Position numbers and translations under genes: made by a program. From the NCBI GenBank assembly GCA_026417115.1, contig JAOADW010000008.1, forward strand, positions 31,227 through 95,226: a DNA stretch of 64,000 nucleotides, written 5' to 3'. The DNA comes from Rhodocyclaceae bacterium. Lineage in GTDB: Bacteria; Pseudomonadota; Gammaproteobacteria; Burkholderiales; Rhodocyclaceae. Positions 40,465 through 60,330 of this stretch are shown here, one piece after another (the stretch's first letter is position 1; the number at the start of each line of letters is the position of its first letter). The notes below the pieces were generated by a model, which was not told the origin of the DNA, did not search any database, and saw only the letters and a program-made list of their open reading frames with translations.

Positions 40465-40555
40465 GGAGAGGTGGGTGAGTGGTCTAAGCCGCACGCCTGG
40501 AAAGCGTGTTCAGGGTAACCCCCTGACGCGGGTTCGAATCCCGCCCTCTCCGCCA
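40465..40555 (+). tRNA. tRNA-Ser(GGA)
   Basis: GGAGAGG...CACGC-CTGGAAA-GCGTG, long variable arm, GGTTCGAATCC, CTCTCCGCCA; 91 nt. Confidence 0.96.
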
Positions 40556-41776: not shown

Positions 41777-42985
41777 TCAGACTCGTTCGACGATGAGGGC
41801 AATCCCCTGGCCTACGCCAATACACATCGTGCACAAAGCAAAGCGCCCTTGACGTCGTCGTAATTCATAAATGGCTGTCGTCGCCAGCCGCGCCCCGCTC
41901 ATGCCAAGTGGATGTCCAAGCGCGATGGCTCCTCCATTAGGATTGACATGCTCTGCGTCATCCGGCAAGCCGAGTTGCCTCAAAACCGCCAACGCCTGCG
42001 CGGCAAAAGCTTCATTGAGCTCGATGACATCCATCTCGCCAAGTGAAAGGCCGAGCCGCGCAAGCAGTTTTTGTGTGGCAGGCACAGGGCCAATGCCCAT
42101 GATGCGCGGAGCTACACCCGCTACTGCGCAACCGACGATGCGAGCAAGCGGGTTCAAGCAATGCCGTCGCACTGCCTCTTCCGACGCGAGCAGCAACGCA
42201 CAGGCGCCATCATTGACGCCAGACGCGTTGCCCGCGGTGACCGTGCCATCGGGACGAACGACGCCTTTAAGCTTAGCCAAGGCTTCTAAGGTCGTTTCCG
42301 GCCGTGGGTGTTCGTCTGCCTGCACAAGGCGCGTCTCGCCTTTTTTTTGGGCTACGGCAACGCTGATGCGTTCTTCAGCGAAGCGCCCGGCAGCCTCTGC
42401 AGCCGCATAACGCTGCTGGCTCCGCCAGGCGAAGGCATCCTGGTCTGCACGGGCGATACCGAATTCGGCCGCGACGTTTTCCGCCGTCTCCGGCATGGAA
42501 TCGGCACCATAAAGGGCTAGCATGCGCGGGTTGATGAAACGCCAACCAATCGTCGTGTCGAAAATTTGTGCCTCGCGTGAAAAGGCCGTTTCCGCCTTGG
42601 CGAGCACGAAAGGCGCACGCGACATGCTTTCCACCCCGCCGGCGATGACGAGATCCGCCTCTCCTGCGCCTATGCTTCTGGACGCCATGGCCACTGCATC
42701 AAGGCCAGAACCGCAAAGCCGATTGATCGTCGTGCCAGGCACCGTCGTAGGCAATCCAGCCAGCAAAGCAGCCATGCGCGCGACATTGCGGTTGTCCTCG
42801 CCGGCTTGATTGGCGCAGCCAAAGATGACGTCGTCGATGGCTTGCCTATCGAGATCCGGGTAACGTTCGATCAGCGCGGCGATCGACAGCGCAGCAAGAT
42901 CGTCCGGACGCACCGTAGACAGCGCCCCACCATACCGGCCGATCGGCGTGCGTAAGGCGCCACAAACATAAACTGGACGCATCAT
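41777..42985 (-). CDS. paaJ: 3-oxoadipyl-CoA thiolase (PaaJ/PcaF family)
   Basis: NRLCGSGL, NEAFAAQ, GHPLG, CIGVGQG. Confidence 0.88.
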   Translation of the reverse strand: MMRPVYVCGALRTPIGRYGGALSTVRPDDLAALSIAALIERYPDLDRQAIDDVIFGCANQAGEDNRNVARMAALLAGLPTTVPGTTINRLCGSGLDAVAMASRSIGAGEADLVIAGGVESMSRAPFVLAKAETAFSREAQIFDTTIGWRFINPRMLALYGADSMPETAENVAAEFGIARADQDAFAWRSQQRYAAAEAAGRFAEERISVAVAQKKGETRLVQADEHPRPETTLEALAKLKGVVRPDGTVTAGNASGVNDGACALLLASEEAVRRHCLNPLARIVGCAVAGVAPRIMGIGPVPATQKLLARLGLSLGEMDVIELNEAFAAQALAVLRQLGLPDDAEHVNPNGGAIALGHPLGMSGARLATTAIYELRRRQGRFALCTMCIGVGQGIALIVERV

Positions 42986-44307
42986 CGCTCCTTCGGTCGC
43001 TCATCGATCACGCGCTTGGCCTTGCCCACGAGCGTGCGTGGCAAGGTGTCGAAATCCATGATCGTGACCTGTGTAGTGACCCCGACCATGCTCTTGATTC
43101 TCTGTTGCAGCTCCTCAGCCGCCTGACGGCGTAGCTCAGGAGAAAAATTGCCGGTCAATTCTGGCCGAAGTTCGCAGCGGACTTCGAGGGTATCGAGATG
43201 ACCTTCCCGTCGAACGACCAGCTGGTAATTCCCGCAAAAGCGCGCATCCCGTAGGATCTGCTCTTCGATTTGCGTCGGGAAAACATTGACGCCCCGGATG
43301 ATCAGCATATCGTCGGTGCGGCCGGTAATCTTGGCCATACGCCGGAAAGAGCGCGCAGTCGGCGGCAAAAGTCGAGTCAAATCACGCGTGCGGTAGCGGA
43401 TGACGGGCATCGCTTCCTTGGTGAGCGAGGTAAAGACCAGCTCCCCTTCCTCGCCATCGGGCAAAACCTCGCCAGTCTCCGGATCGATGATTTCTGGGTA
43501 AAAATGATCTTCCCAAATCACGGGCCCATCTTTACTCTCGATACACTCGCAGGCCACGCCCGGGCCGATCACTTCGGATAAGCCATAAATATCGATGGCA
43601 TCGATGGCGAGTTTGCTTTCGATCTCTGCACGCATTCCCTCGCCCCAGGGCTCTGCGCCAAAAATGCCGATCTTGAGCGAGGTTTTGCGAGGATCGATGC
43701 CCTGTTTTTCGAATTCTTCGGCGATCACCAACATGTACGAGGGGGTCACCATGATGATGTCGGGCTCGAAATCACGAATGAGCTGCACCTGCTTTTCGGT
43801 TTGCCCGCCAGACATCGGCACCACTAAGCAGCCTAGACGCTCGGCGCCATAATGAGCGCCAAGCCCCCCTGTAAATAGCCCATAGCCATAAGCGACATGC
43901 ACCGTATCGCCAGGCCTTCCGCCCGCTGCACGTATCGAGCGGGCAACAACGTCGGCCCAGGTATCGATGTCTTTCTTCGTATACCCGACCACTGTGGGCT
44001 TGCCCGTAGTGCCAGAAGAAGCATGGACCCGCGCAAGTTTTTGACGTGGGTAAGCAAACATGCCGAATGGATAATTCTCGCGCAGATCCTGTTTGGTCGT
44101 GAAAGGGAATTTCGAGAGATCGGATAGCGTCTTCAGATCGTCAGGATGGACGCCCGTGGCATCGAATTTCTTGCGATAGTGCGGTACGTTTTCATAAGCA
44201 TGACGCAATGTCCATTTCAGGCGCTCGAGCTGCAATGCAGCGATTTCGTCGCGGCTTGCTTTTTCGATGGGCTCGAGCTCATGGGGTGCAGGGCGTTTAG
44301 CGGTCAT
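42982..44307 (-). CDS. paaK: Phenylacetate-CoA ligase
   Basis: HASSGTTGKP, YGYGLFTGGLGAHYGAE, YGLSE, RYRTRD. Confidence 0.95.
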   Translation of the reverse strand: MTAKRPAPHELEPIEKASRDEIAALQLERLKWTLRHAYENVPHYRKKFDATGVHPDDLKTLSDLSKFPFTTKQDLRENYPFGMFAYPRQKLARVHASSGTTGKPTVVGYTKKDIDTWADVVARSIRAAGGRPGDTVHVAYGYGLFTGGLGAHYGAERLGCLVVPMSGGQTEKQVQLIRDFEPDIIMVTPSYMLVIAEEFEKQGIDPRKTSLKIGIFGAEPWGEGMRAEIESKLAIDAIDIYGLSEVIGPGVACECIESKDGPVIWEDHFYPEIIDPETGEVLPDGEEGELVFTSLTKEAMPVIRYRTRDLTRLLPPTARSFRRMAKITGRTDDMLIIRGVNVFPTQIEEQILRDARFCGNYQLVVRREGHLDTLEVRCELRPELTGNFSPELRRQAAEELQQRIKSMVGVTTQVTIMDFDTLPRTLVGKAKRVIDERPKER

Positions 44308-44309
44308 CG

Positions 44310-44798
44310 TCAGTCTCCTCTCTCTTCCGATCCTTGGGCGGCGGTGATGTCTGCGATCACCTCGCCGCTGATGCGATACGATTTGCCTCTAAACAGCGCG
44401 ATGATCTTGCCGTTTCGGTTTCGCACGGTGACGTCATAGACGCCGGTACGCCCGGATAACGAGCGTTCCACGGCCTCTGCCTCCAAGATGTCGCCGATTT
44501 TTGCGGGCGCCAAGAAGTCGATATGACATGCCGAAGCCACCGTGTTTTTGTTGTAACTATTGCATGCATAAGCAAATGCCGAATCCGCCAAAGTGAAAAT
44601 CAAACCCCCGTGACATACATGATGGCCATTGACCATGTCTGCACGCACGGTCATCACCAAGCGGGCATAACCTGGACGCACTGCAACGATGCGGATGCCA
44701 AGCAGCTGGCTAGCCGCATCCTTGGGCCACATCGCACGCGCCACTTCTTCGGCGAGCCGTTCGGCTTCATGGCTTGCATGGAGAGTTTTCTCACTCAT
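44310..44798 (-). CDS. paaI: Phenylacetyl-CoA thioesterase (hotdog fold)
   Basis: [25 protein letters not shown]. Confidence 0.93.
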
Positions 44799-46302
44799 GA
44801 CATTTTTTCCTTGCCTCACACCGCTGCAATAGCCAGGGCGAGATCCGATATCTTTCTTCGCCATACACTTCGGCGAGATGGCGCAAGGCCATGACTACCC
44901 TGTCTAAGCCGAGCGCATCTGCCCAAGCCAGTGGGCCAAGCGGATAATTGAGACCAAGTTTCATCGCATGATCGAGGTCGGCAGCACTGCATACCCCTTG
45001 ATTGACTGCATCTGCCGCCTCATTGATCAACATCGCCACCGTCCGTAAAACGATCAAAGCAGGAACGTCGGCTATGCGTACGACACGATAGCCCGCTGCT
45101 TGCAACAAACCGATTGCCTCCTTTGCGGCGGCTTCGGAGCATCGTTCGGCGCATGCGATGGCAAGCGTGCCGGCCTCTGCGTAATCGAGCGCAAGATCGA
45201 CCACGATGGCATTGCCACACTCCATTTCTGCCGCACGGCGGGTGGCAGTACGGCCATCCGAAAGGTAGAGCGCAGCGTCCCCGACGGTCGCGAGACGGCC
45301 ATCGGGATGCGCACTTGCGCAGCACACGCGCAAGCGCGTCGAAATCGCCTGAGCCGCCTTGCTTTCCCCATGGATGGTGAAGTTTTCCGGCTTAGGTTCG
45401 GGCGGTGCCCAATTCGGCGTCATGGGTAAGGCGCCCGCACGGTAGTCGTAAAAGCCTCGTCCACTCTTGCGGCCCAAGAAGCCTGCCGCGACGAGCTCTG
45501 CCTGTACTGGAGAAGGTCGATAACGCGCATCATGGAAAAACGCTTGCCAAATCGATCGCGTCACCGCGAAATTGACGTCCTGGCCGATCAAATCCATCAA
45601 TTCGCAAGGGCCCATGCGAAAGCCGCCTGCCTCCCTGATCACTGCGTCGAGTGTGGCAGGGGTGCAGGCCTTCTCGCTCAGGAGTCGCAACGCTTCTCCA
45701 TAAAAAGGCCGCGCCGCGCGATTGACGATGAAACCTGGACTAGAAGCAGCATGGACGGGTTTCTTTCCCCACGCTTTGGCAGTCTCGTAGAGTGTTTGCG
45801 CAGTCGCGGAGGAAGTCGCCAAGCCACTGACGATTTCGACCAAGGCCATCACCGGCGCCGGGTTGAAGAAATGCATGCCCGCAAGCCGTTCTGGACGTTC
45901 GAGCGCGGCGCCGATCGCGGTCACCGAGAAAGACGACGTATTGGTCGCAAGCAAGCAGCTGGGCTGTATCAGTCGCTCCAGCTCGCGCAATAACGCTTGT
46001 TTGGCTTCTAGGTCCTCGACGATTGCTTCGATGACGAGATCGGCCGCAGCCAAGTCAGCCAGCGATTGGACGACGTTGATCCGCTGCATCACCTCGTGCG
46101 CCTGCGCGGACGAGAGTTTGCCTTTTTCCACCAAGCGCCCCAGTTGTTCGCGGATCAAGTTCACCGCTTTCAGGGCGGCCTCCCCAGACTGGTCATATAA
46201 CCATACGGGGTGGCCGGCCACAGCTGCGACTTGAGCGATGCCAGCTCCCATGGTTCCCGCCCCGACGACGGCCACTCGAGCGGATGGGCTAAGCGCCGCC
46301 AT
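44791..46302 (-). CDS. paaH: 3-hydroxyadipyl-CoA dehydrogenase
   Basis: [19 protein letters not shown], duplicated C-terminal domain. Confidence 0.92.
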
Positions 46303-46305
46303 CGG

Positions 46306-47106
46306 TCATGCTCCACGAAAAAGCGGCGGCCGCTTGGCCAAGAATGCACTCACCCCCTCGGCATAATCGGCGCTAGCGCCGAGCTCACGCATGAAAGTAG
46401 CTTCCATTGACAGCTGCTGCTCGAGGGTGTGGGTCGCTGCGTTGTGCATGGCTTGGCGCATGCGGCGGTAGGCCAACGTCGGTCCTGCCGCCAATTGCTG
46501 CGCGACCGCTTCGACTCGCCATGGAAATTCATCGTCCTCCACGCATTGCCAGATCATCCCCCACTCCGCTGCCTTTTCGGCCGATAGCTTCTCCGCCAAC
46601 AAAGCAAGCCCCATGGCGCGCGCTAGACCAATGCGCTGCGGCAAAAACCAAGTGGCGCCGGTATCGGGAATCAGGCCAACCTTCGCAAACGCAAGCAAGA
46701 AATAAGCTGACTTGGCAGCGATCGCGATGTCGCAGGCGAGCGCAAGGCTCACACCGGCTCCGGCAGCCACGCCATTGACGGCGGCTATGGTAGGCACTCG
46801 TAAATTGGCAAGCCGCATGACCAAAGGTTTGTAGTCGTTTTCGACGGTATCGCCGAGATTGGGAGCCTGGCCCTGCGCCAATTGCACGCCGCGGTCAGCG
46901 AGATCCTGCCCTGCGCAGAAGGCCCGCCCCGCTCCGGTAATGACCAGGACACGCACCGATTCATCGGCTTGTACCCCGTCGAGTGCAGCGCGTAATTCGG
47001 CATGCATCGTCGCCGTGAAACTGTTGAGTTTTTCAGGCCGAGCGAGCGTGATGAAGGCCATTCCGCCCCGATTTTCAAACCGTATTTCTCGGTAATCCAT
47101 CATCAA
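46306..47106 (-). CDS. paaG: 1,2-epoxyphenylacetyl-CoA isomerase
   Basis: FCAGQDL, NGVAAGAG, GLIPDTG (catalytic Asp), crotonase fold within the paa operon. Confidence 0.9.
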   Translation of the reverse strand: MMMDYREIRFENRGGMAFITLARPEKLNSFTATMHAELRAALDGVQADESVRVLVITGAGRAFCAGQDLADRGVQLAQGQAPNLGDTVENDYKPLVMRLANLRVPTIAAVNGVAAGAGVSLALACDIAIAAKSAYFLLAFAKVGLIPDTGATWFLPQRIGLARAMGLALLAEKLSAEKAAEWGMIWQCVEDDEFPWRVEAVAQQLAAGPTLAYRRMRQAMHNAATHTLEQQLSMEATFMRELGASADYAEGVSAFLAKRPPLFRGA

Positions 47107-48782
47107 CCCCCCGGAGCAATGTGGTAACGCCGCTGTACGACTCGAAAACGGTTCGCGACGAAGGCCGCGTCGCAGTAGGCTGCATTGGCAGCCGGATTGC
47201 CGCCCGTGCCATGGAAATCGGAAAAAGCCGCGGATTGATTGACATAGACGCCATTGGTGAGATTGATCGAGAGCGCGACTTTGGCGCGGAAGCTCGCTTC
47301 GATCATTGCGTCAATCACCGTCTCACGCGTCGAATAGAGGCTAGCGGTGAGTGCGCCACGTGTGGCGACGATGTGTTCAGCACGCTTGATCGCGGCATCC
47401 GTATCGGAAACACGAATGATGAAGCTGATCGGCCCGAAGCGCTCTTCCATATAGGCCATTTCGTCTTCGGCTTCGCAGGCCACAATCACGGGTGTGCGTA
47501 CTTCCGCCTGAGGATACGCAGGATTTTCCAATTTGCGCGGCGAAAGCACGACGCGCCCTAAGCGGCCCGAGGCGGCTTCCTCGATGCGCGCAAGCGTCGC
47601 TGGCGATTGGATCGCCCCTAAAACCGCGTGCGCGACTTCGGGCTTCTCCAGCAACTTATCGACGGCCGCCGCGAGATCGGTGCACACTTCCTCGTATCGC
47701 TTCATACCGAGATTGGTCTGGATGCCGCCTGCAGGCACAAGAATCGCTTGCGAAGTGGTGCACATCTGTCCCGAATACAACGCGAGCGTAAAAGCCAAGT
47801 TTCGCAGCATGCCGTCATAATCATCGGTCGAATCTATGACGATCACATTGACGCCGGCAAGTTCGGCATAAACCTGCGCTTGCCGGCAATGCTCGATGAG
47901 CCAATTTCCGAATGCAGGTCCGCCCGTGAAGTCGATCGACTTCACCGCCTCATGGGTGACCAGGCGCTGTGTCGTTTCAGGACGATCCACGACGCACAAG
48001 GAGACGAGATTGGGATCCAAACCGTTTTCCAACAGCACTTCGCGCATCGTTTTGACCGTGATGGCCACCGGCAAAATGGCGTTTTCATGAGGTTTGAGGA
48101 TCACGGGATTACCCGTCGCCAGCGCAGCGAACAGGCCTGGGTAAGTGTTCCAGGTGGGGAAGGTGGAGCAGCCAAGCACGACTGCGACGCCACGGCCGAC
48201 GATTTCGAAATGTTTCTTCATCAAAAGGGGAGGATTTTTGCCTTGTGGCTTTTCCCATGTGGCAACAGCCGGAATAGCGCTCATCTCGCGATACGCCCAG
48301 GCCACCGCTTCCAGCCCGCGATCCTGGGCATGAGGTCCCCCCGCTTGAAACGCCATCATCCAGCCTTGCCCCGTCGTCATCATGACGGCATGGGCGATTT
48401 CGAAGCTCTGGCGATTCAGTCGAGAGAGCATCTCGAGGCAGATTCCGACACGGCCGGCTGGGCCAATCGTCTGCCAGCTGCGCATTGCTCGTTCCGCAGC
48501 GACGATCAAAGAATCGACCTCACAACAGGGATACTCCGTGCCAAGGGGAACACCGTAAGGGGATCGCTCGTTGCCGACCCAGCCGACCACGCCAGGCTGA
48601 TCGAGCTCGAAACGTCGGCCCAAGTGGGCCTCATAGGCGCGTTTGCCCTCTTCTGCGGCGCTTTCACCGTAGAACTTAGGGCTTGGCATCTCAGGGTATG
48701 GCGTCCAATAACCCCGCGTATGGATGGCCGCAAGCGCCGCGTCCAGGGTCTGCCGGTGTTTTTCGAACAATGGGTGTGACAT
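47103..48782 (-). CDS. paaN: PaaN-type aldehyde dehydrogenase (no MaoC domain)
   Basis: GGPHAQDRGLEA, CSTFPTWN, LYSGQMCT, FSDFHGTGGNPA. Confidence 0.88.
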   Translation of the reverse strand: MSHPLFEKHRQTLDAALAAIHTRGYWTPYPEMPSPKFYGESAAEEGKRAYEAHLGRRFELDQPGVVGWVGNERSPYGVPLGTEYPCCEVDSLIVAAERAMRSWQTIGPAGRVGICLEMLSRLNRQSFEIAHAVMMTTGQGWMMAFQAGGPHAQDRGLEAVAWAYREMSAIPAVATWEKPQGKNPPLLMKKHFEIVGRGVAVVLGCSTFPTWNTYPGLFAALATGNPVILKPHENAILPVAITVKTMREVLLENGLDPNLVSLCVVDRPETTQRLVTHEAVKSIDFTGGPAFGNWLIEHCRQAQVYAELAGVNVIVIDSTDDYDGMLRNLAFTLALYSGQMCTTSQAILVPAGGIQTNLGMKRYEEVCTDLAAAVDKLLEKPEVAHAVLGAIQSPATLARIEEAASGRLGRVVLSPRKLENPAYPQAEVRTPVIVACEAEDEMAYMEERFGPISFIIRVSDTDAAIKRAEHIVATRGALTASLYSTRETVIDAMIEASFRAKVALSINLTNGVYVNQSAAFSDFHGTGGNPAANAAYCDAAFVANRFRVVQRRYHIAPGG

Positions 48783-48813: not shown

Positions 48814-48858
48814 ACATTACACACAATAAAAACTGGTGTCAATATTCGGTATCACTTT
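48814..48858 (-). promoter_or_regulatory. Sigma70 promoter of the paaN operon with an overlapping PaaX-type site
   Basis: Minus strand TTGACA-N17-TAATGT; half-site GTATCA at 48849-48854. Confidence 0.65.
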
Positions 48859-48998: not shown

Positions 48999-49041
48999 AG
49001 ATACTAGTTTTGTTGACTTTCAAATTTTTTTGTATCATGAT
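48999..49041 (+). promoter_or_regulatory. PaaX-type bipartite operator spanning the promoter of the diiron gene
   Basis: AGATAC-N27-GTATCA (48999-49037), compare E. coli PaaX TGATTC-N27-GAATCA; TTGACT-N17-CATGAT overlaps it. Confidence 0.7.
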
Positions 49042-49086: not shown

Positions 49087-50115
49087 ATGTCACAGACCAA
49101 GGAACGTCTCGCAGACAAGATGGAATTTCCGCCCGAAACCCAGCAGCCCAATGTCTTTCCACTCTCCTGGCACACCCAGACGCGCAAGCTGCAAGAGGTC
49201 TGGGAGGCCGCTTTACGTGAAAACTGGGATCCCGAAAAACTACCCTGGGACACCCTCGATGTCGAAAGCTATTCCTGGGAAGAGCGCGAAGCCATCGGGT
49301 ATTGGTGGACGCTCTTGTCCGTCTTCGATGCTTCCGCCCCCCCTGTGTTCGCGCAGGCCCTCATCAAAACCTATGAGGTACACGAGGAAGACCCTGCTCG
49401 CAAGTGCTTCTTCTCGGTCACGCGAGATGAGCAAAACCATGAAATCATGTGCGGGCTTGCGATCAGAAAGATGCTCGGGCATCCCGATCCCTTGACTTAT
49501 CAGCCCAAGACAGACCTGGGCCGGCGCCTGCAAAAAAATGCCAAATGGCTATACTACAATGGGGGTCGTTATTGGAACGGCTACAAACAGGCAGTTCCCA
49601 AGTATTCGCTAGCGGTTTTGTTCAGCTCCTTTTTGATGGGGGAAATCGCCGCGGCGACGATCTTCAAGCAGATGTACGAAAACACGCGCGAGGCCGTATT
49701 CAAAGAAGGCTTCCGCCACATCGGACGTGATGAAGGCCGTCACATGGCGATCTGCATGGCCGTGATGGAGCGCGATTACCCGAAACTCGCCACGGAAGAC
49801 AAGGCGCTCGTCACCAAGCAGATCCGCGCTGGCTATCTTTTCCTCTCTGCCGTCTTGTTCGAGCCACCGATGGATTTCTGGGATCTTCCGGCCGATTTCA
49901 TTCCCAATCAGCGCGAAGCCGAGGAAGTCGCGCGTGGCGCCGGTTTTGGCATCCCGACCTATGAAGCGAAATTGCAAAACTGGCGGCAGGCGATGCTGAA
50001 CATGAAGGGCGTGCTCGACCGCTATGGCATAGCTTTCCCGGCGATTCCTGAAGTCGGCATTACCGGCGAAGAAATCACCGAGGTCGACATGGCCGACATT
50101 ATTCCCGTTTTTTGA
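49087..50115 (+). CDS. Uncharacterised ferritin-like diiron-carboxylate protein (candidate oxygenase)
   Basis: D81, E115xxH118, E186, E216xxH219 ligand pattern; strong RBS AGGAGG. Confidence 0.8.
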   Translation: MSQTKERLADKMEFPPETQQPNVFPLSWHTQTRKLQEVWEAALRENWDPEKLPWDTLDVESYSWEEREAIGYWWTLLSVFDASAPPVFAQALIKTYEVHEEDPARKCFFSVTRDEQNHEIMCGLAIRKMLGHPDPLTYQPKTDLGRRLQKNAKWLYYNGGRYWNGYKQAVPKYSLAVLFSSFLMGEIAAATIFKQMYENTREAVFKEGFRHIGRDEGRHMAICMAVMERDYPKLATEDKALVTKQIRAGYLFLSAVLFEPPMDFWDLPADFIPNQREAEEVARGAGFGIPTYEAKLQNWRQAMLNMKGVLDRYGIAFPAIPEVGITGEEITEVDMADIIPVF

Positions 50116-50126
50116 GCGCAGCCATC

Positions 50127-51176
50127 ATGTCCAGAATCATCTTGCATCCATCGGGCAAAGCCGTCGAGTGCGGGGCAGGCGACACCGTGCTGATGGCCTT
50201 GGAGAAAGCGGGGTATGCCTTGCCCAACAATTGTCGCGCAGGAGCTTGCGGCGAATGCAAGGTCAAAGTGCTTGCCGGCCAGTTCGATCAGGGCATGGTT
50301 CTGGACATGGCGCTTTCGACCGAGGAAAGACGACAAGGCTATGGGCTGATGTGTATGGCGAAGCCCCTGTCCGAGGAACTGACGATCGAATGGGGGACCG
50401 AAGACGCACGGCCCAAACTGTTTCCACCCCACGAGAACATGCTCTTTGTCGTCATCGACAAGCGCGCTGTGGCTGCGCGTGTCGTCGAATTACGCTTACG
50501 CCCCGTTGGCCCGCCGATGCGTTATTGGCCTGGACAATATGTGATGTTTGGCAATGCCGAAGCCGGCGCGCCGCTCCGCGCCTATTCGATTGCCAATGCG
50601 CCTCGTCCGGACGGCGAGATCGTGCTGCATGTCGCTCGCGTCGAGAATGGTCAAACCAGCGTGTGGATTCACGATCACCTCGAGATCGGCGCCACCGTGA
50701 AAATTTCCGGCCCTTACGGAACCTTCATCGGCGACCCGACGGTCGAGACGCCCGTGCTGTGTTTGGCAGCCGGAACGGGTTTGGCGCCAATCCTTGCCCT
50801 TGCCGAAGCGGCGTTGCGCCGAGGTTTCCGTAAGCCGGTCATGATCTTGATCTCCGCGCGTACGCGCGCCGATGTCTATGGCGTAGGCATGCTTTCCTGG
50901 TGGCGCACCAAACACCGTCTATTCGACTACCGCATCACTCTCACACGCGAGCAGGCCGAAGGATATCTTTTCGGACGCATCGATGCGGTGTTGCCACCAT
51001 TGATGCCAGACCTCTCACGGCATTCAGTCTTCGTGGCGGGCAGTCCTGCATTCGTCGAAACCTGCGTCGACCTCGTCAAAAGATTGGGAGCCGTAGAGCA
51101 GGCGATCCATACCGAAAGCTTTTATGCCCAACAAAAACCGGTGATCGCCGATCCCTCTCACCTACTCGCGTGCTAA
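50127..51176 (+). CDS. 2Fe-2S/FAD/NAD(P)H oxygenase reductase
   Basis: CRAGACGEC...LMC, RAYSIA, GPYG, AAGTGLAP. Confidence 0.9.
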   Translation: MSRIILHPSGKAVECGAGDTVLMALEKAGYALPNNCRAGACGECKVKVLAGQFDQGMVLDMALSTEERRQGYGLMCMAKPLSEELTIEWGTEDARPKLFPPHENMLFVVIDKRAVAARVVELRLRPVGPPMRYWPGQYVMFGNAEAGAPLRAYSIANAPRPDGEIVLHVARVENGQTSVWIHDHLEIGATVKISGPYGTFIGDPTVETPVLCLAAGTGLAPILALAEAALRRGFRKPVMILISARTRADVYGVGMLSWWRTKHRLFDYRITLTREQAEGYLFGRIDAVLPPLMPDLSRHSVFVAGSPAFVETCVDLVKRLGAVEQAIHTESFYAQQKPVIADPSHLLAC

Positions 51177-52189
51177 CTTTTCCGATTAAGGGGTATGATG
51201 CGCGCCTCTTCACAACCCAGCTTCCTCTGCCCGTGTTTGCCCTGCTTTCGCGTCGCATCGACGATTTCCGCCGGCAGACGCGGATTCGCACCACATCCCT
51301 GATCGTCACGCTCTTTGGCGATGTGGTCGTTCCGCATGGTGGGCGCATCTGGCTGGGCAGCCTGATCACGCTCCTGGCCCCTTTAGGCATTTCCGAACGC
51401 CTCGTGAGAACATCCGTGTTCCGCCTGACCCAGGAGGGGTGGCTTTCCGCGCAACCGCACGGCCGACGCGCCAACTATGAACTGACATCGGCCGGCCGGC
51501 GCCGATTCGATGAAGCATCACGCCATATTTATGCTTCCCATGCGCCGCAGTGGGACCGCCGTTGGCGCCTTTTGCTCGTCGTCGGCGAGCTCACGGTACA
51601 AGAGCGCGATGCGCTCCGACACGCCCTGTTCTGGCAGGGCTTCGGCCGCCTCGATGCCGCCACTTTCATTCATCCGAGCGCAGATCTCTCGGCCGCTTTC
51701 GACGCCCTTGTCGCCGAAGGACTCGCTGCGCTGCCTGGCAAACTAGCTCCGCTCATCGCGGCGGAATCGCATTTCGAATTTTCCGCTGGAAGCCGTGAGC
51801 TCGTCCGCCGCGCCTGGGATCTCAGCACACTTGCCACGGACTATACGGCCTTCGTCGCAGCCTACCTGCCGATCCTCGCAGAGCTCCGGCGACATCGCGG
51901 ACACGAACTCGCACCGCAAGAGGCATTCTTGTTGCGCTTATTGCTCATCCACGACTATCGACGGCTCTTGCTGCGTGACCCGGAGCTGCCGGATGTGTTG
52001 CTTCCGCAGGACTGGCCGGGCCAGCAAGCCCGCTTGCTGACGCGTGAGCTCTATCGTCGACTCTTTCCCACTTCTGAGCGTCATCTTGCAGAGCACTTGC
52101 GCCTAGCCGACGGTAGCTTCCCGCCGTTGGTTCCTGATTTGCCGCCCCGTTTTCCTGAAGATGACCCTTTGGCGATGATTTCGCTCTGA
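51170..52189 (+). CDS. paaX: Phenylacetate regulon repressor PaaX (start uncertain)
   Basis: SLIVTLFGD, ERLVRTSVFRL, LFWQGFG, HDYRRLLLRDPELP..LLP.DWPG. Confidence 0.92.
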   Translation: MLTFPIKGYDARLFTTQLPLPVFALLSRRIDDFRRQTRIRTTSLIVTLFGDVVVPHGGRIWLGSLITLLAPLGISERLVRTSVFRLTQEGWLSAQPHGRRANYELTSAGRRRFDEASRHIYASHAPQWDRRWRLLLVVGELTVQERDALRHALFWQGFGRLDAATFIHPSADLSAAFDALVAEGLAALPGKLAPLIAAESHFEFSAGSRELVRRAWDLSTLATDYTAFVAAYLPILAELRRHRGHELAPQEAFLLRLLLIHDYRRLLLRDPELPDVLLPQDWPGQQARLLTRELYRRLFPTSERHLAEHLRLADGSFPPLVPDLPPRFPEDDPLAMISL

Positions 52190-53493: not shown

Positions 53494-54372
53494 GTGATGC
53501 TTGCGCAATTTCTGCAATTTCTTTTTTCTGGGATCACGGTGGGAGCCACATATGCTCTCGCCGCGCTGGGATTCACGCTGATCTACAACGCAAGTCAAGT
53601 GATCAACTTCGCCCAGGGAGAATTCATCATGCTGGGCGGTATGCTGACGGTCTTTTTCCTCGCTTCCGGCCTTCCTCTGCCATTTGCAGTGATTTTGGCG
53701 ATCGTGCTGCCCGCGATAGTTGGCCTGCTCATCGAAAAATTTGCCATCGAACCCGCCAAAGGCGCCGAGACGGTGAGCTTGATCATCATCACCATCGGCG
53801 CTGCGCTCGTCATTCGCGGCCTCATCCAAGTCTGGCTGGGCAAAGGCACGCATGCATTACCGCCTTTTTCTGGCAACGAGCCCATCCATGTCCTGGGCGC
53901 CACGCTTCTCCCTCAAAGTTTATGGGTGCTCGGCGTCTCAGCCCTCGTCATGGTCGCTTTGTGGTTCTTCTTCAACCGCACTCTCTTCGGCAAAGCCATG
54001 CTGGCCACTTCCTACAACCGCCTGGCAGCCGATTTGGTCGGCATCGATACGAAACACGTGCTCACCGTGAGCTTTGCGCTCTCCGGCGCACTCGGCGCCT
54101 TGGGCGGCATACTGATCGCGCCGATCACATTTACTTCCTATGACGTCGGTATCATGCTAGGCCTCAAAGGGTTCGTTGCCGCAGTAGTCGGCGGACTAGG
54201 CAATGGGTTGGGCGCGGTCGTCGGGGGGCTTCTTGTGGGCATCATCGAGGCGCTCGCAGCCGGCTACCTCTCCTCGGCTTACAAAGATGCCGTGCCTTTT
54301 CTCCTGATCTTGTTGATCCTTTTCTTCATGCCGCGCGGCTTGTTCGGCGCAAAAGTCACGGAGCGGGTTTGA
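53494..54372 (+). CDS. LivH-like ABC permease
   Basis: YALAALGFTLIY, INFAQGE, GLKGFVAAVVGG. Confidence 0.92.
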   Translation: MMLAQFLQFLFSGITVGATYALAALGFTLIYNASQVINFAQGEFIMLGGMLTVFFLASGLPLPFAVILAIVLPAIVGLLIEKFAIEPAKGAETVSLIIITIGAALVIRGLIQVWLGKGTHALPPFSGNEPIHVLGATLLPQSLWVLGVSALVMVALWFFFNRTLFGKAMLATSYNRLAADLVGIDTKHVLTVSFALSGALGALGGILIAPITFTSYDVGIMLGLKGFVAAVVGGLGNGLGAVVGGLLVGIIEALAAGYLSSAYKDAVPFLLILLILFFMPRGLFGAKVTERV

Positions 54373-54373
54373 G

Positions 54374-55318
54374 ATGATTGCGTTCTTTCGACGCCGCCAT
54401 GGCGGTCTCGTGATCGTAGCCCTCATACTGGCCTTGCTGCCGCTTTTTTTCCAAAACGCTTATCACTATGACCTCGCGATTCGCATCGCCATCAATGCCG
54501 TGATCGTCCTTGGACTCAATCTCCTCATTGGTTTTGCAGGCCAAATCAGTCTTGGGCACGCCGGTTTCCTAGGCATCGGCGCCTATGCCTCGGCAATCTT
54601 GCCTAGCCATTATGGCTGGCCTCCCTTGCTTGCGATGATGGCCGGCGCGACTTGTGCAGCGCTTTTGGCGGCGCTCGTCGCGCGACCGATCTTCCGCCTC
54701 AAAGGCCACTATTTGGCGATGGCCACACTTGGTCTTGGCGTCATTCTCGCCATCGCTTTCAAAAACGAAGCCTCACTCACCGGCGGTCCGGATGGGATGG
54801 CCGTGGTCCCGCTTTCCCTGTTCGGATACGAACTCAGCGGCGAGAAGAAATGGTATGCGCTGATGGCGGTCTTACTCTTGTTCAGCCTCTGGGCATCGAC
54901 GAATTTGATCGATTCGCCATTCGGGCGAGCGCTGCGGGCGCTCCATGGATCAGAAGTCGCTGCACAAGTGGCCGGTGTGCACATCGTGCGCTATAAGGTG
55001 GCAATCTTCGTTCTCTCCGCAGTCTTCGCCAGTCTGATGGGCAGTTTGACGGCCCATTACGTGGGTTTCGTCACGCCCAACGTCGCCGATTTCCTACACT
55101 CGATCGAGCTCGTGACGATGGTCGTCGTGGGCGGAATGGCATCGGTCTATGGTTCCTTGGTCGGGGCCGCTCTATTGACCGCCCTCCCGCAGGCGCTCGC
55201 TCGCTTCGAGGGTTGGGAAACTGTCGCTTTCGGCGCCATCCTCATGCTCTTCATGATCTTCCTGCCGCGCGGCATCGTGCCCACCCTCGCCGCCCGCTTC
55301 GAAAAGGGGAAAGAGTAA
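54374..55318 (+). CDS. LivM-like ABC permease
   Basis: GFAGQISLGHA, YLAMATL, TGGPDG, PRGI. Confidence 0.92.
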   Translation: MIAFFRRRHGGLVIVALILALLPLFFQNAYHYDLAIRIAINAVIVLGLNLLIGFAGQISLGHAGFLGIGAYASAILPSHYGWPPLLAMMAGATCAALLAALVARPIFRLKGHYLAMATLGLGVILAIAFKNEASLTGGPDGMAVVPLSLFGYELSGEKKWYALMAVLLLFSLWASTNLIDSPFGRALRALHGSEVAAQVAGVHIVRYKVAIFVLSAVFASLMGSLTAHYVGFVTPNVADFLHSIELVTMVVVGGMASVYGSLVGAALLTALPQALARFEGWETVAFGAILMLFMIFLPRGIVPTLAARFEKGKE

Positions 55319-56082
55319 TGGCCGCCTTACTCGAGGTCGATGCCCTCTCGATCCAATTTGGCGGCGTGAAAGCCGTACAAGACGTCAGTTTTTCGGTGCC
55401 TGCCGGCGCCATCTATGCCGTGATCGGTCCCAACGGCGCCGGTAAAACCACCTTGTTCAACTTGATCACCGGCCTTTATACGCCGACAAGTGGAGAAATT
55501 CGCCTCGAGGGGCAAGCGATCCAGGGTAAGCCTCCCCACGAGCTCGCACGGCTAGGCATGGCCAGGACGTTTCAAAATTTACAAATCTGCCTCAACATGA
55601 CGGCGCTTGAAAACGTCATGGTCGGCGCTCACCTCCGATTGGACCGCAATCTCATCAAGGCGGCTCTCCGTTGGCCCGCTCTTTCACGGCGTGAGCGCGA
55701 ACTCAGGCAAGAAGCCGCCGAATGCATGGCCTATGCAGGGCTCGAGGACTTTCTCGAGGCTCGAGCTGACGCCATGCCGTATGGCGCGCTCAAGCGATTG
55801 GAAATCGCGCGAGCGCTCGCCGCAAAACCTCGCCTCTTGTTTCTCGATGAACCGGCTGCCGGCCTAAATCCCAAAGAGACCCAAGAAGTCGCAGAACTCG
55901 TACGCAAAATTGCCACGCATGGCGTTACCGTCGTTTTGATCGAGCATGACATGAAGATGGTCATGTCATTGGCAGACCGCATTCTCGTGCTCGACTATGG
56001 AAAGAAGCTTGCTGAGGGCTCCGCCGCCGAAGTGCGCGCCAATCCTGACGTAATTGCCGCCTATCTCGGCGCTCACGCTTGA
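55318..56082 (+). CDS. LivG-like ABC ATPase
   Basis: GPNGAGKTT, ARTFQN, LDEPAAG, IEHDM. Confidence 0.93.
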   Translation: MAALLEVDALSIQFGGVKAVQDVSFSVPAGAIYAVIGPNGAGKTTLFNLITGLYTPTSGEIRLEGQAIQGKPPHELARLGMARTFQNLQICLNMTALENVMVGAHLRLDRNLIKAALRWPALSRRERELRQEAAECMAYAGLEDFLEARADAMPYGALKRLEIARALAAKPRLLFLDEPAAGLNPKETQEVAELVRKIATHGVTVVLIEHDMKMVMSLADRILVLDYGKKLAEGSAAEVRANPDVIAAYLGAHA

Positions 56083-56092
56083 GGACACCATC

Positions 56093-57406
56093 ATGATGGA
56101 AGCTCTTGACGTCATTTCCTCGGAGCATCGCAACTTGTGGCGCATCGCCACGGCTCTCGACCAGGCAGCCAATCAAATCGTGGTGGGCGAAGAAATCGAC
56201 GAAGCTTTTTTCGAAGCCGTATTCGATTACCTCGAGCACTTCATCGACCGATTTCATCATCCGAAGGAAGATGATTATCTGTTTGCTCGCTTGCGTATGC
56301 GCCACCACGACATCTCCCCCATTCTCGACCGGCTGCAGAGTGAGCACCGAGCCGGCCCCAACGATCTACGGCGACTGCGGAGCTTGTCCCATGCCTGGCG
56401 TGAGCGGCGCATCGATGGTTCTGAATTTGCAACCGCGCTGAAAAATCATGCCCAGCAGCTACGCCTTCACATCCGCTGTGAGGAGAAAGACGTCCTTCCG
56501 GCAGCGCGCGGCGCTTTGCGTCCGGAAGATTGGCACGCCATCGACAAGGCCTTTCTCGATCATGAGGATCCTCTGTTCGGCCGCGCCGCGCAAGAGAGAT
56601 TCCGAGCGCTGTTCCACCGCTTGGCGCACCTCGCTCCCGAATCGATCGGACTGGGTGCGCATGAAGCGTCCCTTTCTTCCCAGACCGACCAAGCATTCAT
56701 GCCAGCGCTTCTGCAAGTACGCGCCCTGCAAAATCGTTACGGACGCTTACTGGCGCTCAAAGGCATCGATCTAGAGCTCTACAGCGGCGAACTCGTGGCC
56801 TTGATCGGCGCCAATGGGGCTGGCAAAACGACCTTTCTGCGTGCGCTCTCGGGAGTGATTCCTGCGGAAGGATCAATCGTCTTCGATGGCGAAGAGATTT
56901 CCCGCTTACCTGCTGCCGCACGCGTGATGCGAGGAATCTGCCATGTACCGGAAGGCCGACAAGTTTTCGCGCCGCTCTCGGTCCAAGACAACCTGCTTCT
57001 CGGCGCTTACCGACAGCCCCGCCAGCGCGCCGCGGGAGACCTCGAGCGAGTCTATGCACTTTTCCCGATCCTGGCGGAAAAACGCCACCAGGCTGCCGGC
57101 TCTCTCTCAGGCGGGCAGCAGCAAATGCTTGCAATCGGTCGCGCGCTCATGGGACGCCCTCGGCTCCTCCTGCTCGATGAACCCTCGATGGGGTTGGCTC
57201 CCTTGCTCGTCGAGGAAGTCTTCAACGTGATCCAAACGCTCAAGACGCAAGGCATCACGATTCTGCTCGTCGAGCAAAATGCTCACGCCGCACTGGCCCT
57301 TGCAGATCGCGGCTACGTGCTGACTACGGGCCGCATTGCGCTTACCGGCAGCGGCCAAGCGTTGCTGAAGAACGAAGAAGTACGCGCCGCCTATCTCGGC
57401 ATGTAA
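56093..57406 (+). CDS. Hemerythrin-domain / LivF-like ABC ATPase fusion
   Basis: N-terminal SEH, HHPKEDDYLF, SEH, HIRCEEKDVLP; C-terminal GANGAGKTT, LSGGQQQM, LDEPSMGL in one frame. Confidence 0.9.
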   Translation: MMEALDVISSEHRNLWRIATALDQAANQIVVGEEIDEAFFEAVFDYLEHFIDRFHHPKEDDYLFARLRMRHHDISPILDRLQSEHRAGPNDLRRLRSLSHAWRERRIDGSEFATALKNHAQQLRLHIRCEEKDVLPAARGALRPEDWHAIDKAFLDHEDPLFGRAAQERFRALFHRLAHLAPESIGLGAHEASLSSQTDQAFMPALLQVRALQNRYGRLLALKGIDLELYSGELVALIGANGAGKTTFLRALSGVIPAEGSIVFDGEEISRLPAAARVMRGICHVPEGRQVFAPLSVQDNLLLGAYRQPRQRAAGDLERVYALFPILAEKRHQAAGSLSGGQQQMLAIGRALMGRPRLLLLDEPSMGLAPLLVEEVFNVIQTLKTQGITILLVEQNAHAALALADRGYVLTTGRIALTGSGQALLKNEEVRAAYLGM

Positions 57407-57425: not shown

Positions 57426-58406
57426 ATGGCTTCGACGAATCATACCGCTGCAAAACCCTTTGCATCGACCGCCGACCAGGAAGAAAAAAACATCTCATTT
57501 ACCCAGCTTTCCGAGCATTGTTGGGCCTATACCGCCGAAGGCGATCCCAATACCGGCGTGATCATCACCGATCATGCCGTGCTCATCTGCGATACGCTCG
57601 CCACGCCTGTGATGGCCCAGAGGCTGATCGCAGAGATCCGTAAGATCACGACGGCGCCGATCAAGTACGCCGTGCTCTCCCATTACCATGCGGTTCGCGT
57701 GCTCGGCGCCTCCGCCTATCGACACGAAGGACTGCAGGAAATCATCGCCAGCCGCGGCACTTATGAATTGATCCACGAGCGCGGCGCCGCAGATATGCAG
57801 TCGGAATACGAACGCTTCCCGCGTCTGTTTCGCAATTTCGAATCCATACCAGGTCTGACCTGGCCTACGCTCGTCTTCGACGGTGCCGTCACTTTGTTCA
57901 TGGATGATCTCGAAGTGCAAATCTTTCACCCTGGCGCCGGACACACCAAAGGAGACACAGTCGTCTGGGTTCCCCGTGAAAAAGTGCTGTTCTCAGGCGA
58001 CCTCGTCGAATACGGCGCGGCTTGTTATGCCGGTGATGCCCATCTTGCCGCATGGCCTGCCACTCTCGACAAGCTTGGCCAGCTCGGCGCAGAAAAAATG
58101 GTGCCTGGTAGAGGAGCAGCCCTGACATCGGCAGCCGACGTCGCTGCCGCGCTTGCCTATACGCGCGATTTCGTGACGACCTTGTTCCAATGTGCAAAAG
58201 AGGCGGTCGCAGAAGGTATGACGCTGAAACAAGCCATGCTCCATACGCGTCGCGCAATGGATCCGAAATTCGCACATGTCTTCATCTATGAGCACTGTTT
58301 GCCATTCGATGTCACGCGCGCCTATGAAGAAGCATCTGGCATCGAGCATCCTCGCATCTGGACCGCGGCCCGTGACAAAGAAATGTGGCAAGCGCTACAA
58401 GACTGA
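57426..58406 (+). CDS. MBL-fold metallo-hydrolase
   Basis: LSHYHAVR, GHTKGD, FSGD. Confidence 0.85.
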   Translation: MASTNHTAAKPFASTADQEEKNISFTQLSEHCWAYTAEGDPNTGVIITDHAVLICDTLATPVMAQRLIAEIRKITTAPIKYAVLSHYHAVRVLGASAYRHEGLQEIIASRGTYELIHERGAADMQSEYERFPRLFRNFESIPGLTWPTLVFDGAVTLFMDDLEVQIFHPGAGHTKGDTVVWVPREKVLFSGDLVEYGAACYAGDAHLAAWPATLDKLGQLGAEKMVPGRGAALTSAADVAAALAYTRDFVTTLFQCAKEAVAEGMTLKQAMLHTRRAMDPKFAHVFIYEHCLPFDVTRAYEEASGIEHPRIWTAARDKEMWQALQD

Positions 58407-58416
58407 AGGAGGAGAA

Positions 58417-60090
58417 ATGCTTTCGACTTATCGCTATCCCAAATACGACTACCTACCCCCTCCTGAACTCACCTCCAAGAGCCAACGGCGATATCCTCTC
58501 GTCGTCGTCGGCGCAGGCCCTGTCGGGCTTTGCGCCGCCATCGACCTCGCCTTGCAGGGCTTGCCCGTGCTCTTGCTCGATGAAGACGACACGGTCTCGG
58601 TCGGCTCGCGCGGGGTATGTTATGCGAAACGCACTTTGGAAATCCTCGACCGCCTGGGCGTGGGCGATGCCGTGGTGAGCAAGGGCGTTTCCTGGAACAT
58701 CGGGCGCACCTTTTATCGCAACGAAGAGGTCTACCACTTCAACCTCTTGCCGCAGCCCGACCACAAACGGCCAGGAATGATCAATCTCCAGCAGTATTAC
58801 CTTGAGGAGTACCTGATTGCGCGCGCACGCCAATTCACGCACCTCGACATCCGCTTCAAGAATCGTGTCGTCTTTATCGATCCTCGCCCCGACGGCGTCT
58901 TGCTACACGTCGAAACGCCCGACGGCGCCTATAGCCTCGAAGCGGATTGGGTAATCGCCGCCGATGGAGCAAAAAGCAGCATTCGCAAGATGATGAACCT
59001 CGACGTGGAAGGCAAGGTCTTTCTCGATCGCTTTTTGATCGCCGACGTGGTCATGAAGGCTGATTTCCCCGCCGAGCGCTGGTTTTGGTTCGACCCTCCC
59101 TTTCACCCCGGCCAATCGGTGCTCTTGCATCGTCAAGCCGATAATGTCTGGCGCATCGACTTCCAGCTCGGCTGGCAAGCCGATCCCGAAGAAGAAAAGA
59201 AGCCCGAGAAAGTGATCCCACGCATTCGCGCGATGCTAGGCGACGAACGGGAATTCGAACTCGAATGGGTGAGCGTCTACACCTTCCAATGCCGTCGTAT
59301 GTCGAAGTTTCGACATGGACGTGTCCTTTTCGTTGGCGATGCCGCCCACCAGGTGTCGCCCTTTGGCGCACGCGGCGCGAATTCCGGCATCCAGGACACT
59401 GACAATCTCTGCTGGAAACTCAAACTCGTAATCGATGGCAAGGCGCCGGATCGGTTGCTCGACAGCTATTCGGATGAGCGCATCTTCGCCGCCGATGAAA
59501 ACATCATGAATTCGACGCGATCGACGGACTTCATTACGCCCAAGAGCCGCACTTCCCTGACTTTTCGCAATGCGGTGCTGACGCTGGCGCGTCATCATCC
59601 ATTTGCGCGCGCGCTGGTGAACTCCGGCCGCTTATCGGTGCCTGCTTTTCTCGTCGCCTCGACGTTGAATACGCCCGACCAAGAATCATTCGCAGGCGAG
59701 ATGATTCCAGGCGCGCCCATGGACGATGCTCCCCTGAAAGTCGATGGCAAGCCCGCCTGGCTCCTCGACCAGGTTGGCAACCGTTTTGTCGTCTTGCATT
59801 ACGCCGCCGATCCACAACAAATCGATGCAACCATGCGGCATGAAATCCAGCAACTCGCTCTGGATGCCATACCCATCGAAGTCCTGCTCGTCACACCGGC
59901 TGCCAGCGGGACCGCCCACGGCCTGCGCGTGCTCGAAGACTATAGCGGACGTTATGCCGAGCGCTATGACGCTCGTCCAGGTACGACCTATCTCATCCGT
60001 CCCGACCAGCACGTCGCCGCCCGCTGGCGTGCATTTGATGCCGCAAGCATACGCGCGGCGACAATGCGCGCAACCGCAAATCTTTCCTAG
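58417..60090 (+). CDS. FAD-dependent aromatic hydroxylase (MhaA/MhpA-like)
   Basis: GAGPVG, ADGAKS, GDAAH, GANSGIQD, IRPDQHV. Confidence 0.88.
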   Translation: MLSTYRYPKYDYLPPPELTSKSQRRYPLVVVGAGPVGLCAAIDLALQGLPVLLLDEDDTVSVGSRGVCYAKRTLEILDRLGVGDAVVSKGVSWNIGRTFYRNEEVYHFNLLPQPDHKRPGMINLQQYYLEEYLIARARQFTHLDIRFKNRVVFIDPRPDGVLLHVETPDGAYSLEADWVIAADGAKSSIRKMMNLDVEGKVFLDRFLIADVVMKADFPAERWFWFDPPFHPGQSVLLHRQADNVWRIDFQLGWQADPEEEKKPEKVIPRIRAMLGDEREFELEWVSVYTFQCRRMSKFRHGRVLFVGDAAHQVSPFGARGANSGIQDTDNLCWKLKLVIDGKAPDRLLDSYSDERIFAADENIMNSTRSTDFITPKSRTSLTFRNAVLTLARHHPFARALVNSGRLSVPAFLVASTLNTPDQESFAGEMIPGAPMDDAPLKVDGKPAWLLDQVGNRFVVLHYAADPQQIDATMRHEIQQLALDAIPIEVLLVTPAASGTAHGLRVLEDYSGRYAERYDARPGTTYLIRPDQHVAARWRAFDAASIRAATMRATANLS

Positions 60091-60102
60091 GAGGATGCTT
60101 CC

Positions 60103-60330
60103 ATGTCTTTGATTCTGTCGCCTAATTTTCACGAGCCAGGCAGGCATTTTTTTCGAGCTTATGGTCCTGGCGACGAGTTTTATGAGGCGCTGATCGAAAT
60201 GCACCGCGATCTATCCGATGAGCAAAGCGCCCTCGTCAATGCCCGTTTGATTCTTTTACTGGCCAACCACATCGGCGATTTGTCTGTGCTGCGCGACGCC
60301 CTGCGAATCGCCCGCGAAGGAGTTTTCTGA
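60103..60330 (+). CDS. DUF2783 small protein (probable hydroxylase coupling subunit)
   Basis: DEFYEALIEMHRDLS...NARLILLLANHIGD. Confidence 0.85.
   Translation: MSLILSPNFHEPGRHFFRAYGPGDEFYEALIEMHRDLSDEQSALVNARLILLLANHIGDLSVLRDALRIAREGVF

Follow-up and report, generated by a model that had tools for sequence, protein, structure and literature searches.

Genetic setting of DII and RED

The window analysed here is a stretch of 64,000 nucleotides from the Rhodocyclaceae bacterium assembly GCA_026417115.1 (contig JAOADW010000008.1, positions 31,227 to 95,226), and all coordinates given are positions within it. It contains a phenylacetate (paa) gene cluster in which two forward-strand genes, here called DII (49087..50115) and RED (50127..51176), are placed between a divergent paaN and a co-directional paaX. 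Reading frame, ligands and predicted fold identify DII as a class II ferritin-like (R2-fold) diiron protein of 342 amino acids (aa), the predicted catalytic subunit, while domain matches identify RED as a [2Fe-2S]-FAD-NAD(P)H reductase of 349 aa. A preliminary description of the window had proposed that the pair is a phenylacetyl-CoA epoxidase that replaces PaaABCDE. The results presented below point to a real two-gene oxygenase of the phenylacetyl-CoA regulon, which probably works like PaaABCDE without belonging to that family.

The DII protein has a complete set of diiron ligands (D81, E115, H118, E186, E216 and H219) together with Cys122. These residues had been picked out in the preliminary description, and all prove to be invariant among 31 close homologues. 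Profile scans match DII to no named family, the only hits to AurF (PF11583) and rubrerythrin being weak and below cut-off, and a phmmer search against the Protein Data Bank (PDB) gives no significant relative. The absence of a PaaA or BoxB signature is likewise confirmed, as PF05138, TIGR02156 and TIGR03225 are all without a match. In RED a Fer2 domain (residues 6-80) precedes FAD_binding_6 and NAD_binding_1, so that the ferredoxin is N-terminal as previously described. The AlphaFold model of DII (mean pLDDT 90) is of the class II ferritin-like type, and none of its structural matches is close. The highest Z scores are for R2lox (19.3), an aldehyde-deformylating-oxidase entry (19.2), human R2 (18.7) and MMOH (16.3), followed by the PaaAC chain 3pvr_B (15.2), AurF (14.9) and BoxB (14.3), at identities of 9-14%; Foldseek agrees. 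A predicted complex of DII, CoA, two Fe and RED scored 0.01 and is of no use as evidence.

The leftward operon is ordered paaN-G-H-I-K-J-SBP on the reverse strand. It consists of paaN, encoding an aldehyde dehydrogenase (PaaN_2; 47103..48782; TIGR02288 above cut-off), paaG for the epoxide/oxepin-CoA isomerase (46306..47103; TIGR02280 above cut-off), paaH, paaI, paaK and paaJ, identified by profile matches (41777..46302), and a last gene for an ABC substrate-binding protein (SBP; 40604..41749). The paaX repressor gene (51197..52189, forward strand; TIGR02277 above cut-off) comes after RED. The NCBIfam cut-offs are passed by PaaK, G, N, I and X, PaaH falls slightly below its own (663.9 against 669.4 bits), and PaaJ scores above the cut-off of the PcaF thiolase model, which upholds the earlier reading of a paa cluster. 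Several relatives of the operon have paaABCDE directly after the SBP position.

The host assembly comprises 2.27 Mb in 62 contigs and is 87% complete. Within it there is no match to PF05138 or PF06243, paaA, B, C and D give zero tblastn matches, and BoxB was not found; the genome-wide absence of paaABC that the preliminary description had asked about holds at this level of completeness. On other contigs lie paaF, another paaK and a crotonase that related clusters conserve. No protein of the window reaches the model cut-off for the alternative oxepin-CoA hydrolase (oxepin_alt). A crotonase of cluster 17 (e.g. L074:456-1238; host C34:32475-33251), which is kept in 29 paa loci, does not reach it either, but is a candidate for the ring hydrolase acting with PaaN.

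Operators upstream of DII

A PaaX-type operator, GATACT-N25-TGTATC, occupies positions 49000..49036 and overlaps a predicted promoter (TTGACT at 49013-49018, 17 nt, CATGAT at 49036-49041). It is one of only two such sites in the host genome. A weaker second site of the same type (ATTACA-N26-GGTATC; 48816..48853), read from the sequence, precedes paaN, and homologous loci also show a second site at this distance. The operator form given for E. coli PaaX is TGATTC-N27-GAATCA (PMC9493321, available part).

Among the 80 nearest DII loci, 70 have a PaaX-type site upstream of DII (one mismatch at most to GATACA-N25-27-TGTATC, which we take to be the PaaX-type operator form), compared with 0.05 in shuffled sequences. 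Where DII-RED stands as a lone pair among housekeeping genes, the PaaX-type site is replaced by ACCGACCGGTCGGT-like (PaaR-type) boxes, found in 12/20 family loci against 0.15 in shuffles. According to the available parts of PMC2770484 and PMC9493321, the ACCGACCGGTCGGT-type box is a validated operator of the TetR repressor PaaR in Burkholderia cenocepacia, and phenylacetyl-CoA releases PaaR. Genome-wide counts of the PaaR 14-mer (1-6) are no higher than those of a control pattern (0-7), and the evidence from these sites is therefore positional. An operator-type site lies immediately upstream of DII in all five genomes scanned, and in two of them (G441 and G410) it is the sole PaaR 14-mer of the genome; a site with 1-2 mismatches also lies between paaN and paaG in 6/7 matching paa operons. 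A looser scan, run without a shuffle control, gives a hit in each of the 18 loci that lack core paa enzymes (12 PaaR-type and 6 PaaX-type, one of them doubtful). Because sites for two unrelated repressors track DII-RED, the pair is predicted to belong to the phenylacetyl-CoA regulon, and this tracking is the strongest sign of it. No cis-regulatory family was detected in the window or in four family loci.

Distribution of DII relative to paaG and paaA

RED accompanies DII in 80/80 of the nearest loci, and paaG and paaN are each present in 67/80. Co-occurrence was counted in two samples. The first contains 221 genomes of the host family (220 that are at least 92% complete, together with G000), of which 43 have DII, 48 paaA and 90 paaG (87 over cut-off); paaG is present in 43/43 DII genomes, and DII in 0/131 genomes that lack paaG. 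The second, tallied by hand, contains 118 genomes of the order of G308, with DII in 43 (one of which has only a 56%-identical clade), paaA in 44 and paaG in 53, including 43/43 DII genomes. Both samples together give paaG in 86/86 DII genomes. An order-wide sample (6/301) was too dilute.

The mutual exclusivity of DII and paaABCDE, a check put forward in the preliminary description, is rejected. Both occur in 25/43 DII genomes of the family and in 36/43 of the second sample, where 7 genomes have DII only, 8 paaA only and 2 neither. A genome-wide check of 50 among the 80 nearest loci similarly finds paaA in 28; it often closes the operon on the side away from DII, and in locus L063 DII-RED is directly divergent from paaABCDE.

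In two lineages paaABCDE alone is absent from operons that otherwise keep their synteny. Three genomes (G451, G498 and G535) carry paaY-N | G-H-I-K-TetR-J-SBP, which is the operon of four others (G422, G441, G410 and G471) minus exactly paaABCDE: paaK-TetR-paaJ stands where the latter have paaK-paaABCDE-TetR-paaJ. DII-RED is kept elsewhere in these three genomes (two mapped). The complete chromosome G314 (L019) also keeps DII-RED and reads SBP-paaF-crotonase, as against SBP-paaABCDE-paaF-crotonase in L234-L236. In a quickly built tree of DII (101 rows, 15 of them unlabelled) the paaA label requires 17 changes, at least 6 of these being forced by strong branches; as the tree is unrooted for this purpose, it is synteny that points to loss rather than gain. 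In four paaA-less genomes of the second sample a distance of 8-21 kb separates DII from paaG, and in two more DII is within the cluster. Dechloromonas denitrificans (L051) is an example of an environmental isolate without paaABCDE. By gene content DII is the only predicted oxygenase in many complete paa clusters. What stands of the proposed replacement is that paaA is absent from 25/86 DII genomes; as 61/86 have both, the pair is better called a probable redundant isoenzyme, which in many genomes is the sole one remaining.

Strains CUZ and NSS

Two isolates described in PMC4453571 bear on this point. In the available parts of that paper, Sedimenticola selenatireducens CUZ grows aerobically on phenylacetate (20% O2) with a doubling time of 29.7 h, and D. 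chlorophilus NSS grows on phenylacetate at 10% O2 only. Both strains are reported there to be without paaABCD, PAA proteins peak on phenylacetate plus O2, and phenylacetyl-CoA accumulates in CUZ; the authors postulate a yet-to-be-identified epoxidase and favour a homogentisate-type cluster instead. In Table S1 of the paper the locus tag that would come after 'paaE' and before paaZ is missing (CUZ_04216, NSS_00036180), and the labels of Fig. S1C read paaK-livKHMGF-paaX-paaE-hyp-paaZ-F-G-H-J. The order paaX-'paaE'-hyp-paaZ-paaF-paaG-paaH-paaJ matches paaX-RED-DII-paaN of the window, and this gene order suggests that their 'paaE' corresponds to RED and their 'hyp' to DII. Among the matches listed there is no named Sedimenticola or Dechloromarinus DII.

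In the available part of a 2026 pathway survey (PMC13186573), PaaABCDE is treated as the sole bacterial entry to aerobic phenylacetate breakdown, with paaA/paaC used as markers; the words 'ferritin', 'diiron' and 'alternative' do not appear in that text, which notes only epoxidase-less configurations.

The DII family and its sister clades

DII is a remarkably well conserved protein with 842 homologues, the best 120 at 75-90% identity, and more remote full-length relatives range from 59% down to 25%. Among the named organisms that carry it are Beta-, Alpha- and Gammaproteobacteria, Sulfurospirillum and Bacteriovorax-type bacteria. A relative is encoded in 518 stretches of a one-genome-per-species collection. 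Full-text literature searches, whose coverage leaves out subscription journals and most supplements, returned neither a description of the family nor phenylacetate growth data for named paaA-less isolates.

A sister clade with 53-57% identity to DII (L132 and L133 of Variovorax; L253 and L254) has separate operons containing MaoC, a crotonase, an OB-fold protein, a thiolase, a PaaK-like CoA ligase, a reductase and, except in L132, PaaN. A PaaR box is present in L253 and L254. These operons possibly represent a second arylacetyl-CoA pathway. In Variovorax the operon is then followed by an FAD-linked oxidase and an indolepyruvate oxidoreductase.

A further clade, of about 50% identity, is actinobacterial. 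An inverted repeat, RTKACR-N25-YGTMAY, occurs 260 bp upstream of the homologue in 44/77 of its loci (L134-L214), against 1.4 in shuffles; it has PaaX-like spacing but is not counted as support, the motif having been derived by visual inspection of these same, redundant loci. It is absent at the promoter of the one Embleya paa operon inspected, and two actinobacterial PaaX homologues serve other pathways. A role for this clade in B12 metabolism, considered in view of its btuFCD, NicO and CobS/U neighbours, was rejected because the 6 cobalamin riboswitches found in 17 of the loci lie on the opposite strand, five serving the divergent transporter and one lying downstream.

Proposed function and alternatives

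DII-RED is likely to be a two-component, O2-dependent phenylacetyl-CoA ring 1,2-epoxidase that is isofunctional with PaaABCDE, redundant rather than strictly replacing it. In such a scheme PaaK would make phenylacetyl-CoA, lifting PaaX or PaaR repression, so that DII-RED is predicted to be induced by this compound and is likely able to stand in for PaaABCDE. Electrons from NAD(P)H would travel through the FAD and [2Fe-2S] centres of RED to the metal pair in DII, which once reduced would activate O2 and put oxygen across C1-C2 of the ring; PaaG, PaaN, PaaJ, PaaF and PaaH, together with a ring hydrolase, would complete the pathway. In most carriers DII-RED would persist alongside PaaABCDE as an isoenzyme that may suit different O2 or cofactor conditions; given this redundancy, the loss of paaABCDE would be tolerable. 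This reading is favoured by the linkage to RED, paaG and paaN, the constant company of paaG, the operators, the precise absences of paaABCDE and the repeated changes of the paaA label, the distribution of PaaH and BoxB among paaA-less paaG genomes, the operons of the 53-57% clade, strains CUZ and NSS, and the precedent of BoxB.

A number of observations weigh against this assignment. The coexistence with paaA in 61/86 DII genomes is one, and in the family the two genes are not associated: the paaG genomes divide into 25 with paaA and DII, 18 with DII only, 22 with paaA only and 25 with neither (Fisher p 0.30). Among genomes with both paaG and paaH, paaA is missing in 14/38 with DII as against 3/21 without it (p 0.08, kin not being independent). 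The argument of the preliminary description that PaaG requires an epoxidase is not watertight alone because 25/47 paaG genomes without DII are also without paaA; of these 25, which keep paaG with neither oxygenase, 16 have BoxB. The predicted fold is nearer to R2lox and R2 than to the PaaAC chain or BoxB, and the lysine bridge of PaaA has no equivalent in DII, where V111 stands in its place. The assignment of DII in CUZ and NSS is by gene order, most alphaproteobacterial loci have a homogentisate-type block beside DII, and the actinobacterial clade has neither a reductase nor a paa gene in 81 loci.

The genomes with paaG and neither oxygenase also differ in other ways. BoxB is present in only 1/18 DII-only genomes against the 16/25 above, whereas a PaaH-type dehydrogenase (called above the gap between 472 and 539 bits) is kept in 14/18 against 3/25, and the paaG clusters of the 'neither' genomes are of another, patchy type (19/25 mapped). 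Genomes with both paaG and paaH have paaA or DII in 56/59 cases. The BoxB and PaaH splits are post hoc, and the kin are not independent.

The homogentisate-type block raises the main alternative, that DII-RED is a ring hydroxylase converting phenylacetyl-CoA to 2- or 3-hydroxyphenylacetyl-CoA, after which a thioesterase, an MhaAB-like FAD monooxygenase and the homogentisate route would follow. In the window this block (57426..62520, forward strand) encodes an MBL hydrolase, an FAD monooxygenase with a small partner ORF, a VOC protein, an FAA hydrolase and maiA. The 558-aa flavoprotein and the small ORF resemble MhaAB in size, the only feature compared (PMC3053370, available part), and a cluster of this kind is important on phenylacetate plus O2 in the covered text of PMC4453571. 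The monooxygenase is, however, adjacent in only 2/80 of the nearest loci. It is over cut-off in 11/20 DII genomes tested and missing from 9/20, and it is missing in 8/15 paaA-less DII genomes, including the single-contig G480 and G435, whereas paaG is present in 86/86; a hydroxylase is accordingly considered unlikely. An epoxidase for ring-substituted or heteroaryl acetyl-CoAs that is weak on phenylacetyl-CoA would explain the retention beside paaABCDE, the separate operons of the 53-57% clade and, from the same paper, the slow growth (29.7 h) and phenylacetyl-CoA accumulation of CUZ. As the operators are of phenylacetyl-CoA-responsive types and paaA-less clusters keep PaaK over cut-off, this is given a similarly low probability.

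DII-RED might instead protect the cell, by reductively deoxygenating the toxic epoxide or by removing peroxide, which would suit its usual coexistence with paaABCDE, the divergent arrangement in L063 and the weak rubrerythrin match; PaaABCE itself was reportedly found by Teufel in 2012 to deoxygenate the epoxide. However, at least 25 genomes keep DII together with the complete lower pathway although no PaaA is there to form the epoxide, and such a role appears improbable. This and the substituted-substrate explanation would account for coexistence, though complete clusters that lack paaA are harder to reconcile with them. Diiron oxygenases are capable of hydroxylating C-H bonds, and oxidation of the benzylic carbon (to mandeloyl-CoA or phenylglyoxylate) would feed benzoate pathways; with BoxB in only 1/18 paaA-less DII genomes and no explanation offered for why paaG, N, H and J are kept, this is the least credible of the alternatives and very improbable.

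If DII-RED is a phenylacetyl-CoA epoxidase, hundreds of species would at present be scored as pathway-less, to judge from the 518 stretches with a relative, and the question left open in PMC4453571 would gain a named candidate gene. It would also offer a two-protein arene epoxidase, easier to express than a complex of four to five subunits, and two unrelated epoxidases in one regulon would allow a direct test of O2-affinity specialization, the Km of PaaABCE for O2 being 3 uM. More tentatively, and with the balance somewhat against it, DII may represent a third family of aromatic-CoA ring epoxidases that evolved independently and consists of a single R2-like subunit in which Cys takes the place of the radical Tyr of R2. 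It would then be the missing enzyme of Sedimenticola CUZ and NSS, retained beside PaaABCDE in denitrifiers and microaerophiles as an isoenzyme for particular conditions, for example low O2, with sister clades for other arylacetyl-CoAs in Proteobacteria and Actinobacteria.

Other features of the window and related loci

Downstream of paaX lie livH/M/G and a hemerythrin-livF fusion (53494..57406, forward strand), likely to be involved in arylacetate uptake. In the fusion (56054-57406) the LivF ATPase of this ABC transporter carries a hemerythrin domain; the protein, of about 438 aa, is seen again in about 49 fetched loci and could couple arylacetate uptake to O2 sensing. On the other side of the cluster the leftward paa operon terminates right after a tRNA-Ser(GGA) region (40162-40555), in which two 138-bp tandem units, each with a degenerate tRNA 5' part, stand in front of the tRNA gene.

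In several other loci (L105:8112-9557, L091, L095-L098 and L104) a flavodoxin and a 264-aa PaaA_PaaC-family protein, in which EKxxH replaces the first ExxH, flank paaG beside sucCD. This pair is seen in 7/19 mapped genomes without paaA and DII, several having a second copy. In G539:C108 (L228) paaG-paaH lie near boxB. Given this and the co-occurrence of paaG with BoxB in 16/25 'neither' genomes, PaaG may supply the 3,4-dehydroadipyl-CoA isomerase of the box pathway, which is listed as unknown in the available part of PMC9007349.

Comparison with known diiron systems

DII-RED shares with the PaaABC(D)E epoxidase (PDB 3PVR/3PW1) its pathway position, regulon, ferritin-like diiron fold and an FAD/[2Fe-2S] reductase. 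DII is nevertheless a single subunit, without PaaB, C or D, it matches neither PaaA profile (PF05138 or TIGR02156), and an hhalign comparison gives a probability of 1% with a low-diversity PaaA alignment. The available part of PMC4498308 gives the PaaA ligands as Glu42, E72, H75, Asp126, E155 and H158 with a Lys68 bridge, whereas the DII series D/E/H/E/E/H has Asp first and Glu fourth. Profile, ligands with the lysine bridge, and PaaB/PaaC partner genes (in the 87%-complete genome) thus all place DII outside PaaA. In PaaE the ferredoxin domain comes last; RED has the reverse order, ferredoxin first, as in MmoC/BenC.

The benzoyl-CoA 2,3-epoxidase BoxAB (PDB 3PER) similarly combines a single diiron subunit with a reductase and acts on an aromatic CoA ester, BoxB being described as a monomeric diiron aroyl-CoA epoxidase (PMC4498308). 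BoxB is, however, about 470 aa long against 342 aa, DII has no TIGR03225 match and so lies outside this family, BoxA has two [4Fe-4S] clusters unlike RED, and BoxB does not accept phenylacetyl-CoA.

R2lox and class I R2 give the best structural and profile (E 1e-5) matches to DII, at 11-13% identity. The first ligand of class Ia R2 is Asp, as in DII. The radical Tyr of R2 presumably lies four residues past the His of the first ExxH, a position that is Cys in 75/86 rows of the DII family with Tyr not among the five commonest residues, and at what we take to be the positions of the Tyr-Val ether cross-link of R2lox DII has A84 and S181, placed by sequence spacing rather than coordinates. The dedicated reductase and paa context further separate DII from both. 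For the arylamine N-oxygenases AurF/CmlI the PF11583 score is 22.6 bits against a cut-off of 29.6, a weak match that is the source of the database names 'AurF' and 'diiron oxygenase' for DII relatives. The third His ligand of these enzymes, presumably four residues before the second ExxH, is Ile/Val in the DII family (column 212), and there is no arylamine pathway context around DII. On sequence and predicted structure, DII is therefore a distinct family, neither PaaA, BoxB nor AurF. It has in common with aroyl- and arylacetyl-CoA epoxidases a predicted pair of metals bridged by carboxylates, set in a class II ferritin-like fold, and a partner reductase that uses NAD(P)H, and the putative operators upstream of it assign it to the PaaX/PaaR regulon.

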